Shown here piece after piece: positions 46,697 to 47,291 of a stretch of 48,979 nt of DNA. Each line of letters opens with the position of its first letter. The stretch's first letter is position 1. The translations under genes were made by a program, and so were the position numbers. The notes below the pieces were generated by a model. The model searched no databases, was not told the DNA's origin, and saw only the letters and a list, made by a program, of their open reading frames with translations. The DNA is from a virus (taxonomy: Duplodnaviria > Heunggongvirae > Uroviricota > Caudoviricetes), in IMG/VR virus record IMGVR_UViG_2529293142_000029, positions 1-48,979 of that record; one strand, given 5' to 3'.

Positions 46697-47001
46697 AATT
46701 ACAAAAACCCTAACCAATTGATGGATTTCTTTTATCTGAACTCGCTACGGCGAGTTTTGTTTTATGGAGATGATAAATGCACTTCCGAGTTACAGGTGAA
46801 TGGAATGGAGAACCATTCAACAGAGTTATCGAAGCAGAGAACATCAATGACTGCTATGACCACTGGATGCTGTGGGCGCAGATAGCACATGCAGACGTAA
46901 CCAATATTCGAATTGAAGAACTGAAAGAACACCAAGCCGCCTGATGGTGGTTTTTTATTGCCTGATTTGCAGGTTCGATTCCCTATTCGGAGATAGCACT
47001 C

Positions 47002-47202
47002 ATGCAACACGAACTACAGCCTGATTCACTGGTTAATTTGAAATTCATCATGGCCGATACTGGCTTCGGTAAAACCTTCATCTATGACCGGATTAAGTCC
47101 GGGGACCTGCCTAAAGCCAAAGTTATCCACGGGCGAGCAAGATGGTTATATCGTGACCATTGTGAATTCAAAAATAAGCTCTTAAGCCGCGCCAATGGGT
47201 AA
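47002..47202 (+). CDS. AlpA-family DNA-binding protein (candidate excisionase/regulator)
   Basis: 66 aa; LKFIMADTGFGKTFIYDRIKSGDLPKAKVIHGRARW is the AlpA/MerR-like HTH signature. Confidence 0.7.
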   Translation: MQHELQPDSLVNLKFIMADTGFGKTFIYDRIKSGDLPKAKVIHGRARWLYRDHCEFKNKLLSRANG

Positions 47203-47272
47203 AATAGCGGGTAAAATATTTTTCACATCTAAAAAACACCATTCCAATCAATCCCCTGCCGCTTCAAGTAGA

Positions 47273-47291
47273 TGCCTGCAGGGGACACCAG
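47273..47291 (+). other. Candidate attR core: 3'-terminal segment of a tRNA-Arg (argW-like) gene ending in CCA
   Basis: GATGCCTGCAGGGGACACCA agrees with the recalled argW 3' end (GATTCCTGCAGGGGACACCA) at all but one position; lies between the last phage gene and the host permease. Confidence 0.5.

Follow-up and report, generated by a model that had tools for sequence, protein, structure and literature searches.

The right-hand part of the 48,979-nt stretch of viral DNA analyzed here (the window) is, with a probability of about 85%, the right end of a ~47.3 kb prophage that occupies the tRNA-Arg(CCU) gene argW and carries an IntS/TorI recombination module, and a second, internal piece of argW (fragment 1) belongs to that module and is not a relic formed at this locus. 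Fragment 1 is a fixed piece of the leader of torI, the gene for the recombination directionality factor (RDF); it is inherited with the module, plays no role in strand exchange and did not arise here. Its short T-loop-like box, which travels with torI in phages of many enterobacterial genera, is probably a cis-regulatory element of that leader. The result places the right prophage boundary at 47290/47291 as a landmark for annotation, identifies the excisionase and links a prophage that is otherwise poorly matched, its late region having almost no counterpart in the phage collection, to a recombination module that has been studied well.

Two pieces of argW and the attR core

We compared argW of E. 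coli K-12 (75 nt, NC_000913.3) with the whole window and obtained exactly two 16-nt exact matches, both on the + strand: fragment 1, TTGCAGGTTCGATTCC, which equals argW nt 46-61, and the attR-side fragment, CCTGCAGGGGACACCA, which equals argW nt 60-75. The longest chance match to argW in 60 shuffles of the window was 10-14 nt, and the next best real matches were 10-11 nt. Both fragments are therefore real, being exact and longer than any chance match. They are neighboring parts of the tRNA with a 2-nt overlap (CC), lie in the same orientation and enclose a 66-codon gene. The original prediction had reported both pieces, as a 20-mer at 46964-46983 and a 19-mer at 47273-47291, and the alignment to argW bears this out to within 1-3 bases: the 20-mer includes the exact 16-mer of fragment 1, and in the 19-mer the CCA ends at 47290 and not at 47291, a G of the host flank, while 47274 (G) mismatches argW. 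No tRNA gene was found in the window by ARAGORN, and fragment 1 had no Rfam tRNA match even at E<=10.

The attR-side fragment is the displaced 3′ end of argW at the right junction. In 1414 complete E. coli genomes, the empty site consists of yfdC-argW joined directly to window position 47291 and onward at ~99.7% identity, and no fragment or torI remnant was found at these unoccupied sites. This comparison, proposed with the original prediction for argW-csc loci lacking the prophage, agrees with its assignment of attR. The published KplE1 core is CTGCAGGGGACACCAT (PMC2951348); the core CTGCAGGGGACACCA(T), equal to the argW 3′ end, is present at the prophage/host junction here, and in the Sf6 and HK620 records these 16 nt carry an 'attP core' feature, flanked by the torI homologue and int. 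An inverted repeat that straddles the left edge of the core is kept in the E. coli-type, Salmonella g341c, Erwinia, Klebsiella and most other relatives that were read. These results show that the attR core ends at 47290 and that host DNA begins at 47291 (Table 1). The right-hand piece is the ordinary, previously characterized attR of an IntS/TorI prophage of the KplE1/Sf6/HK620 type.

The other components of the module are present as well. The integrase is identical to K-12 IntS at 380 of 385 positions (99%) and has Pfam matches to Arm-DNA-bind_3 (PF13356), Phage_int_M (PF22022) and Phage_integrase (PF00589). The product of 47002-47202 is identical at 65 of 66 positions to the 'Tor inhibition protein' of PDB 1z4h, the gene is named torI in RefSeq annotations, and it lies at the opposite prophage end from intS, beside attR. 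At the sequence level, intS and torI are both intact ORFs in this copy and the core is unmutated; the UTI89 core is short of one G. All 288 TorI-family loci that we recovered use the argW core TG[CT]AGGG[GA]A[CT][AG]CCA.

The window begins at the intS ATG, and argW is located 161 nt upstream of that ATG in every related lysogen inspected (EC23HZZ201, K-12 and TW10590), including the carrier of the closest relative of this prophage, TW10590, which has the expected P′ arm upstream of its intS. Judged from these relatives, attL and argW of this prophage would lie just outside the window.

In KplE1, IntS, TorI and IHF recombine attL and attR at a 15-16-bp core, with five TorI sites on attL (PMC2951348, PMC3509656), and the P′ arm-type sites have TAAA in common (PMC2951348). 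Two GGGTAAAA repeats in the window, onto which the HK620 'attP repeat_region' maps, are putative P-arm sites for IntS. In vitro, a 135-bp attR that starts within the 3′ end of torI is enough for recombination (PMC3509656); its left primer, CTCTTAAGCCGCGCCAATGG (PMC3509656), maps to 47179-47198. Fragment 1 is located 197 bp to the left of this published minimal attR, 308 bp inside the prophage.

Table 1. Features at the two ends of the prophage and in its right flank (window coordinates)
Feature	Position	Strand	Description and basis
intS, tyrosine integrase	1..1158	+	Left prophage end; window starts exactly at its ATG
lambda orf55-like small gene	46777..46944	+	ORF list; last early-left gene before the torI leader
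Intrinsic-terminator-like hairpin and T-run	46934..46957	+	Terminator scan; mosaic joint ('boundary') to the constant torI leader
TTGCCTGATTTGC, TTGC-N5-TTGC repeat	46958..46970	+	cII-binding site of a putative pI promoter in the HK620 record
Fragment 1, TTGCAGGTTCGATTCC	46967..46982	+	Variable-loop end, T-stem 5′ strand, T-loop and first two bases of T-stem 3′ strand
Leader box GTTCGATTCC (T-loop-like)	46973..46982	+	Starts 29 nt before the torI ATG; only cross-genus conserved part of fragment 1
torI Shine-Dalgarno GGAG	46989..46992	+	Read from sequence; nearly invariant in alignment A3
torI, recombination directionality factor (excisionase)	47002..47202	+	'AlpA-like' gene of the original prediction
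Two GGGTAAAA repeats, putative P-arm IntS arm-type sites	47197-47204, 47209-47216 (47196..47218)	+	Overlap the torI stop codon
Inverted repeat TCCCCTGC / GCAGGGGA	47252-47259 / 47278-47285	+	Straddles the left edge of the core
attR core	47275..47290	+	argW nt 60-75 (T-stem 3′ strand, acceptor 3′ strand, ACCA); equals K-12 pseudogene pawZ
Host DNA right of prophage	47291..48979	.	Spacer with DUF4942 pseudogene fragment (~47500-47589), then cscB
cscB	47732-48979	-	RefSeq annotation of homologous locus and ORF list

Fragment 1 in the torI leader

The torI leader starts at a mosaic joint. The 3′ end of the orf55-like gene and its terminator are 95-97% identical to lambda, HK140, Stx phages and CUS-3, the same hairpin stands upstream of pI/xis in lambda, and differing upstream contexts all meet the leader at GGTTTTTTATTG. 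The second TTGC of the repeat that follows is also the first 4 nt of fragment 1 (46967-46970); at the position of this repeat lambda has TTGCGTGTAATTGC, and outside the E. coli lineage the repeat is not conserved in the leaders of other genera that we compared. Loci of the MS6192 type contain a ~440-bp extra segment between two terminators. Because this segment sits upstream of the leader and not at fragment 1, a role of the fragment as an insertion hotspot was rejected.

We found fragment 1 unchanged, at the same place and the same distance from torI, in the virion genomes of Sf6 and HK620, in KplE1 of K-12 and in UTI89. All lysogens that we examined carry it, both where the host flank is dsdC (K-12 and UTI89) and where it is csc (here), and in E. 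coli viral contigs it is preceded by upstream contexts of at least three kinds. A 10-13-nt version is found in the modules of Salmonella, Erwinia, Serratia, Pantoea, Citrobacter, Enterobacter and Edwardsiella. Fragment 1 is thus carried by free phages and by the modules of other genera; therefore, it arrived with the phage and is silent on the history of the locus.

The original prediction had proposed that the two pieces might reflect successive integrations, or a satellite remnant, at the same tRNA, so that an earlier or tandem integration at argW by a phage or satellite would have left 46967-46982 behind with torI as part of the remnant. The arrangement itself invites this reading, as adjacent tRNA parts stand in the same orientation with a small gene in between, argW is a known integration hotspot and the host flank holds an unrelated pseudogene fragment (DUF4942). 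The data do not sustain it: packaged Sf6 and HK620 genomes and all examined lysogens carry the fragment equally placed, torI encodes the RDF that pairs with the intS of the opposite prophage end, and the empty sites have argW running straight into the host flank. We regard a local relic as very improbable.

A second reading makes fragment 1 a working attachment core, such that recombination between the argW T-arm and 46967-46982 would leave torI in the chromosome. In the CUS-3 record (CP000711), TTGCAGGTTCGATTCC bears the labels 'attL core' and 'attR core' and serves as the prophage end, and every lysogen does contain a perfect 16-bp direct repeat of the argW T-arm. However, the right end of CUS-3 in UTI89 is 100% identical and is followed by torI, P-arm sites and the normal core, while the CUS-3 left end has an Sf6-like P′ arm and an IntS-type integrase. 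Recombination of this kind would cost the host its argW and the phage its RDF and P arm, and published in-vitro recombination uses the 3′ core (PMC2951348, PMC3509656). The composite junction that it predicts, argW(1-61) joined to torI, was found in 0 of 5426 complete E. coli genomes. Together with its position inside the prophage and outside the 135-bp attR, and its presence in free phages, these results led us to reject fragment 1 as the crossover site, a proposal to which we give next to no credence. The CUS-3 GenBank record mislabels fragment 1 as an att core. A perfect 16-bp T-arm repeat can be taken for one, and in CUS-3 the error cuts off torI and the real attR.

Origin and possible role of the leader box

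The box GTTCGATT[CT]C was present in 244 of 288 TorI-family genes from several genera, in 100 of 134 distinct leaders and in 18 of 38 leader families, where the viral contigs behind these counts are mostly close E. coli relatives. Its position is -29 from the torI ATG in 85 of 103 occurrences, and Erwinia-type and L216 leaders hold second copies at -42 or -35. Across the 17 leader families of alignment A3, GTTCGATT-C is invariant, compared with a mean column identity of 60%. Pairwise identity reaches 0.96 in the box, a value that arises partly by construction because the families were picked for containing it, while it is 0.42 and 0.52 in the flanking 10-mers and 0.48 at torI third codon positions. 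The same leader is also joined to two RDF alleles that are just ~46% identical to each other.

Because the box is kept while its flanks and the synonymous sites are near random identity, we consider it fairly likely to be under selection as a cis-acting element of torI expression. Against a function stand its dispensability for in-vitro recombination, being outside the 135-bp attR, occasional point mutations within it and its absence from 20 of the 38 leader families, among which L021, L188 and L195 look like simple 25-nt deletions.

The part that is shared across lineages is a generic T-loop, GTTCGATTYC, commonly preceded by CAGG; it is called generic on the general pattern of tRNA T-loops and on its conservation across lineages. 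The original prediction had allowed that the upstream match could be no better than the similarity of many T-arms to one another. This holds for the conserved part and fails for the TTGCA extension, which is argW-specific and confined to the E. coli/Shigella lineage, and whose TTGC coincides with the second TTGC of the cII-box-like repeat. The E. coli leader lacks the T-stem 3′ strand, and fragment 1 does not behave as a tRNA-like element in ARAGORN, Rfam or the consensus fold.

One explanation of the E. coli sequence comes from phage records, in which fragment 1 is the body of a CII-activated, pI-type promoter that drives the integrase for lysogenization. HK620 annotates the stretch as 'promoter, phage integration' with a cII protein_bind feature, Sf6 annotates it as 'pI; possible integrase expression promoter', and in lambda the same orf55 terminator is followed, at the homologous position, by pI with TTGCGTGTAATTGC. 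The stretch 46957-46995 nevertheless departs from a CII-dependent pI-type promoter, as its repeat spacing is N5 as compared to N6 in lambda, the repeat is missing in most other lineages that keep the box, and a promoter scan found no sigma-70-like promoter, with no -10/-35 match, over fragment 1. The box would moreover fall in the non-contacted spacer, and intS is transcribed from a separate, autoregulated promoter that has been mapped downstream of attP (PMC2951348). We therefore judge this explanation improbable.

Alternatively, a protein-binding or expression element may have come to resemble a T-loop by convergence, with the 16-nt match in E. coli produced by the abutting TTGC of a cII-type box. 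Very many tRNAs share the generic T-loop GGTTCGAnTCC. GTTCGATTYC alone is invariant while the bases 5′ of it vary (CAG, CAA, CCT, TCA, GCC, CGC), and the TTGC at 46967-46970 is also the second half of the TTGC-N5-TTGC repeat, which is positionally homologous to the lambda pI cII box. In addition, GTTCG is one of the TorI recognition pentamers (GTTCG/GATCG/GTCCG; PMC2951348), and similar pentamers fill the P′ arm. However, GTTCG in the box is always followed by A, while the next base is C or T, and never A, in 45 pentamers from 10 P′ arms; the box is thus probably not a canonical TorI site. The ATTCC after GTTCG also matches argW, with the preceding CAGG as the majority state, and argW is the sole tRNA target of the whole family, which makes a link between box and tRNA the simpler reading. 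Convergence is, in our estimate, doubtful.

The argW likeness of the box may instead stem from an old duplication or capture of a tRNA-like att block. In its functionless form, this proposal treats the box as an ancient scar: the ancestral attP would have had a longer argW-like block that ran from T-arm to CCA, and torI and the P arm would have become enclosed by two copies of it, either through site-specific insertion of a small element or through tandem integration followed by deletion, with the left copy persisting. Integration naturally places an insert between direct repeats of an att block, the box region in its commonest form, CAGGTTCGATTCC, agrees with argW over 13 nt, and the agreement extends further in leaders of the Serratia and Pantoea types (CAGGTTCGATTCCTG and GGTTCGATTCCTG). 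Many non-E. coli P arms read (A/G)TTCGATGTNTGCAGGGG beside the core, as a decayed second T-loop copy would, and the box is dispensable in vitro and lost in some lineages. Yet a neutral 10-mer is unlikely to have stayed intact at -29 in 18 leader families when identity in their flanks and at synonymous sites has dropped to 42-52%; no intermediate was found, either as a torI-less module or as a full-length left block; and the sequence after the box, by inspection, resembles the rest of the tRNA no more than by chance. A scar without function is accordingly unlikely. A single tRNA block split by insertion of torI was rejected because two tRNA-like blocks are present, many lineages keeping a degenerate T-loop, TTCGATGTNTGCAGG, beside the core too.

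If the box does act in cis on torI, several readers can be considered. The likeliest of those named here, though less likely than not, is a protein of the module itself, namely TorI, which could see the GTTCG pentamer in the box, or IntS, which could see a mimic of the T-loop side of attB. A deliberate attB (tRNA T-loop) mimic, by which the core-binding domain of IntS or TorI would tie RDF synthesis to the recombination state, is unlikely as a specific form; if it were true, it would add a feedback layer to prophage excision control that has not been described before. A promoter or activator element placed like lambda pI is quite unlikely, and an RNA-level effect on translation or processing more so. 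For the latter, no consensus RNA structure was found over 17 leader families with RNAalifold, and UUCC:GGAG anti-Shine-Dalgarno pairing, possible in 88% of cells, is equal to shuffles and without covariation; together with the missing Rfam match, these results led us to reject an RNA element. The remaining probability falls to some other reader. A second pentamer-like sequence occurs 12-13 nt downstream of the box in some lineages only.

The box offers a modest lead and no discovery. Rho control of torI has reportedly been described by Menouni et al. in 2013 (PNAS). The Ansaldi group proposed that KplE1-type excision is controlled mainly at the RDF gene (PMC2951348), and such control may reasonably be sought in a conserved element that stands 29 nt ahead of the torI start codon.

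Comparison with known systems

In lambda, as here, an orf55 3′ end and terminator are followed by a short regulatory leader and an RDF gene, and a CII box, TTGCGTGTAATTGC, stands in that leader. Lambda differs in that its Xis and Int have no sequence relationship to TorI and IntS, in its order of xis-int-attP instead of RDF-attP-int, and in having neither a T-loop-like box nor a tRNA target. The P4-family tyrosine integrases that insert in tRNA genes offer a parallel at the ends of the prophage, as the phage-borne tRNA 3′ end restores the gene at attL and a displaced fragment marks attR; IntS here likewise has an N-terminal arm-binding domain. A second tRNA-like block ~290 bp from the core, in an RDF leader, is not known to be a defining or commonly described trait of that class.

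CUS-3 (E. coli K1 RS218, CP000711) has the same integrase type, P′ arm and orf55-terminator-leader right end; its record lacks torI and the family core, whereas the UTI89 copy shows both directly after. The attP regions of Sf6 (AF547987) and HK620 (AF335538) are 98% identical over 46900-47290 and have the same order of terminator, leader with fragment 1, torI homologue (gene 18 / hkaC), arm repeats and core. In these free phages the core runs into the P′ arm and int, while here it runs into host DNA, and their phage bodies are unrelated to this prophage. Their records describe the fragment region as a putative pI promoter and 'boundary sequence', not as a tRNA-like element.

The KplE1/CPS-53 prophage of K-12 (argW-attL-intS ... 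torI-attR, pawZ) has the same target tRNA, core and GGGTAAAA repeats, and it resembles this prophage in an IntS that is 99% identical, a TorI identical at 65 of 66 positions and a leader with TTGCAGGTTCGATTCC upstream of torI. Small differences surround the shared parts: in the window a C stands immediately left of the core (CCTGCAGG, a 16-nt argW match), where K-12, Sf6 and HK620 have T; CCA is followed by G, where K-12 has T; and the leader is preceded by a lambda orf55 terminator, whereas in K-12 a degraded xis remnant of the P22 type (ypdJ) precedes it. KplE1 is defective, a remnant of 10 kb beside dsdC, whereas the window holds a full-length ~47 kb prophage beside the csc sucrose genes.

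The attR end of an IntS/TorI recombination module

We compared E. coli K-12 argW (GTCCTCTTAGTTAAATGGATATAACGAGCCCCTCCTAAGGGCTAATTGCAGGTTCGATTCCTGCAGGGGACACCA) with both strands of the whole window and found exactly two exact 16-nt matches: a left-hand piece (fragment 1) and a right-hand piece (the attR core). The longest chance match in 60 window shuffles was 10–14 nt, and the remaining real matches were all 10–11 nt. The two argW fragments of the original prediction are therefore real, and their predicted edges were right to within one to three bases. They are consecutive parts of the tRNA, overlapping by two C's at nt 60–61, and they bracket a 66-codon gene. 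No tRNA gene was found in the window, which starts exactly at the ATG of the integrase gene.

Positions of the features discussed (window coordinates unless a retrieved locus, L-number, is named)
Feature	Position	Strand	Identity or source
Integrase gene (intS)	1-1158		380/385 identical to K-12 IntS (cryptic prophage KplE1/CPS-53)
Acyl_transf_3 family gene	1600-2478	+	directly downstream of intS
Fragment 1	46967-46982	+	exact, argW nt 46-61
Box (T-loop-like part of fragment 1)	46973-46982		
torI	47002-47202		65/66 identical to PDB 1z4h
Left primer of published attR (CTCTTAAGCCGCGCCAATGG)	47179-47198		
43-codon ORF	47195-47326	+	positional homologue of Sf6 gene 17 / HK620 hkaB
Inverted repeat (TCCCCTGC ... 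GCAGGGGA)	47252-47259 ... 47278-47285		
attR core piece	47275-47290	+	exact, argW nt 60-75
DUF4942 fragment	~47500-47589		RefSeq: truncated DUF4942-domain gene
CUS-3 'att core' 16-mers (TTGCAGGTTCGATTCC)	L003 3068-3083; L004 1-16		torI-leader fragment, argW T-arm; CP000711 annotation
UTI89 (NC_007946) attR core (TCTGCAGGGACACCA)	L039 2575-2592		
xis remnants	L011 10380-10460; L008 2440-2505; L308 818-880		K-12 ypdJ region; g341c; 

The bracketed gene is torI, as its product is nearly identical to the 'Tor inhibition protein' structure, and its homologues carry that name in RefSeq. The integrase shows the domain make-up (arm-binding, central and catalytic) of a heterobivalent tyrosine recombinase. 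K-12 shares this anatomy (argW, 161 nt, intS ... torI, 73 nt, pawZ), pawZ being a 15-nt pseudogene equal to the argW 3′ end. In Sf6 and HK620, the GenBank 'attP core' is the same 16-nt stretch as the right-hand piece, with the torI homologue (gene 18 / hkaC) on one side and int on the other. Over 46900–47290 the window shares 98% identity with these phages, and it diverges beyond. The KplE1 attachment core is CTGCAGGGGACACCAT, its attL contains five TorI sites (GTTCG, GATCG, GTCCG) and TAAA-containing IntS arm sites, and its intS is repressed by both IntS and TorI (PMC2951348). With IntS, TorI and IHF supplied, a 135-bp attR recombined with attL in vitro (PMC3509656); its left primer maps within the window.

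We fused K-12 yfdC-argW directly to window 47291–47700, and this synthetic empty site was uninterrupted in 1414 complete E. coli genomes at ~99.7% identity. Consequently, the proposed comparison with unoccupied argW-csc loci places the prophage/host boundary at 47290/47291. The host flank consists of a DUF4942 pseudogene fragment followed by cscB-cscK-cscA-cscR-dsdX'-dsdA. TW10590, the one complete genome with a close relative of the prophage, shows yfdC, tRNA-Arg and intS arranged as expected, and the other lysogens examined agree; the window's own attL lies outside it. The locus agrees with the IntS/TorI module of KplE1, Sf6, HK620 and CUS-3 in every testable respect. The region is the attR end of this known recombination module, and the assignment of 47273–47291 as the attR of an argW element was borne out by the empty site and by the anatomy of KplE1, Sf6 and HK620. 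That reading of the right-hand piece is established knowledge.

Several local features accompany the core. The inverted repeat spans its left edge, with 18–24 nt between the arms, and is kept in E. coli, Salmonella, Erwinia, Klebsiella and most other relatives; no documentation of a part in IntS binding was found in the accessible literature. Position 47275, left of CTGCAGG, is C as in argW and in locus L172, and T in Sf6, HK620, K-12 and UTI89, so that argW identity reaches 16 nt in this prophage. The 43-codon ORF begins within the torI stop region and crosses the core; its 3′ part is host-derived in the prophage, and its product, if any, therefore differs between the integrated and excised states. 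The DUF4942 fragment, in the host spacer between attR and cscB, is also found in unoccupied sites and is probably what is left of an older argW-csc island.

Fragment 1 in the phage-borne torI leader

Fragment 1 (TTGCAGGTTCGATTCC), followed by CTATTCGGAGATAGCACTC and the torI ATG, is present base-for-base in the Sf6 and HK620 virion genomes, and the same leader occurs in K-12 KplE1, in UTI89 and in virtually all of 80 E. coli-type viral contigs. In those contigs it follows at least three upstream contexts: a lambda orf55-type terminator, a P22-type xis remnant plus a second terminator, and decayed forms of this second arrangement. These occurrences indicate that fragment 1 is phage-owned and delivered at integration. 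Neither fragment 1 nor torI was found at unoccupied argW loci in the 1414 genomes. Fragment 1 is thus an inherited part of the torI leader, and the suggestion that it is a relic of a satellite or of successive integrations is neither needed nor supported.

Many modules carry, just upstream of the leader, the first ~18 codons of a P22-type xis (..SLTLDEAC.FLKIS(RPT)..) and then a terminator. This remnant is the footprint of a P22-type xis-int-attP unit replaced by a torI-attP-intS unit.

Fragment 1 has also been taken for an att core. The CUS-3 record (CP000711) begins TTGCAGGTTCGATTCC-TGCAGGGGACACCA, followed by an Sf6-type P′ arm and the integrase, and ends at the leader fragment, the two 16-mers being labelled 'attL core' and 'attR core'. 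UTI89 carries the final 784 bp of CUS-3 at 100% identity, directly followed by torI, arm repeats and the usual core (L039 2270–2600); the CUS-3 record, by stopping at fragment 1, leaves out torI and the usual attR core. Relative to the argW 3′ end, the UTI89 core lacks one G; this loss may explain why the core of the CUS-3-type prophage was overlooked, and it might impair excision. The product of a crossover at fragment 1, argW nt 1–61 joined to the torI leader, was present in 0 of 5426 complete genomes. Fragment 1 is therefore not an observed crossover site, and we rejected it as an att core.

A T-loop-like box upstream of the RDF gene

With the window's TorI and those of Erwinia, Klebsiella and Salmonella phages as queries, we collected TorI-family loci from IMG/VR and from a set of genomes with one representative per species. 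Within the 70-nt leader, the box (GTTCGATT[CT]C) was present in 244 of the 288 genes that had 70 nt or more of upstream sequence, in 100 of 134 distinct leaders and in 18 of 38 leader families. It starts exactly 29 nt before the ATG in 85 of 103 occurrences and at -30, -28 or -26 in 11 more; Erwinia-type leaders and a few others have second copies at -42 or -35. Across 17 aligned leader families, the sole invariant block besides the ATG is G-T-T-C-G-A-T-T-n-C, an identity inflated by selecting the families on the box, and mean column identity is 60%. Mean pairwise identity is 0.42 and 0.52 in the ten bases before and after the box, respectively, and 0.48 at third codon positions of the adjoining torI segment. 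The intact 10-mer, its fixed distance from the start codon and surroundings diverged to near-random identity suggest that the box is under selection.

Only this T-loop-like part of fragment 1 is conserved. In most leader families, the four preceding bases match argW (CAGG); other lineages have CCAA, TCCT, CTCA, CCGC or GCCG. Only the E. coli/Shigella lineage has the further TTG(C) that brings the match to 16 nt; there it doubles as the second half of TTGC-N5-TTGC, annotated in the HK620 record as a CII site of a pI-type promoter. Downstream of the same terminator, lambda has TTGCGTGTAATTGC in the homologous place. The target is argW in all members, with cores reading TG[CT]AGGG[GA]A[CT][AG]CCA.

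The box is missing from the modules of Klebsiella Chronis, Erwinia EhrS_49, several Pantoea, Tatumella, Rouxiella and Arsenophonus; three box-less families (L021, L188, L195) read TT(ATT/ACG)CCTG|GAG..., as if ~25 nt had been deleted between short repeats. The same C-to-A change (GTTCGA to GTTAGA) appears on five leader backgrounds (L077, L284, L147, L151, L207) and could reflect repeated loss as prophages decay, or a variant that is tolerated. The same leader precedes two RDF alleles sharing ~46% of residues (MQHQLQPDS... and MRELRDDS...). Near-identical leaders (terminator-TTGCCTGGCTTCCAGGTTCGATTTCCAAACCGGAGATGAAACCC) accompany the two alleles and different arm-type repeats, GGGCATAA versus GGGTAAAA (L168–L174 and L199 versus L020, L033 and L285–L298; IMG/VR and genome loci), indicating a mosaic joint at the start codon.

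Given its position, the box most likely affects torI expression, which fits the proposal from KplE1 that excision control acts mainly at the RDF gene (PMC2951348). It is not required for excisive recombination in vitro, as it lies 197 bp left of the minimal attR that recombines. A module protein could read the box, which includes GTTCG; however, the next base is always A, versus C (25) or T (20) among 45 pentamers of 10 distinct P′ arms, which argues against a canonical TorI site. At the pI position, the box could act as a promoter or activator element, but no sigma-70-type promoter was detected over the box, and fragment 1 did not classify as a CII promoter. An RNA-level effect is likewise possible: UUCC:GGAG pairing with the Shine-Dalgarno sequence can form, but with no covariation and no more than in shuffles. 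The box had no tRNA or Rfam match and its leaders no consensus fold, so that it is not a recognisable RNA element; nor did fragment 1 classify as a tRNA-like RNA.

The argW likeness of fragment 1 could be inherited from an old duplicated or captured att block, in which case the original prediction was right in kind, though the event would be ancient and phage-borne. Convergence towards a motif resembling a T-loop is an equally possible origin. The box is not half of a tRNA split by torI insertion, since (A/G)TTCGATGTNTGCAGGGG, a second, decayed copy of the T-loop, is still found in the P arm next to the core in many lineages outside E. coli.

The module and its known relatives

The Acyl_transf_3 gene occupies the position of the Sf6 O-antigen acetylase (oac) and is likely a lysogenic-conversion moron; in relatives, an S24 peptidase/HumD fragment is annotated between it and intS. 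Almost nothing among 50,697 phage records matches the late/structural half (1200–24000; portal PF06381, DUF3383, DUF2213 and, in relatives, baseplate genes) at the nucleotide level. A near-full-length match to the adjoining segment 1100–5000 occurs in only 1 of 5426 complete E. coli genomes, TW10590, where it has an IS3 insertion. The IntS/TorI module is here joined to a poorly sampled phage type.

A small new residue is the T-loop-like box, conserved across genera at -29 of the RDF gene by sequence comparison, of which we found no description in the accessible literature. Otherwise, nothing at the locus is new in kind: both fragments are already annotated in some form, in K-12 as pawZ, in Sf6 and HK620 as pI or 'boundary sequence', and in CUS-3 as 'att core'.
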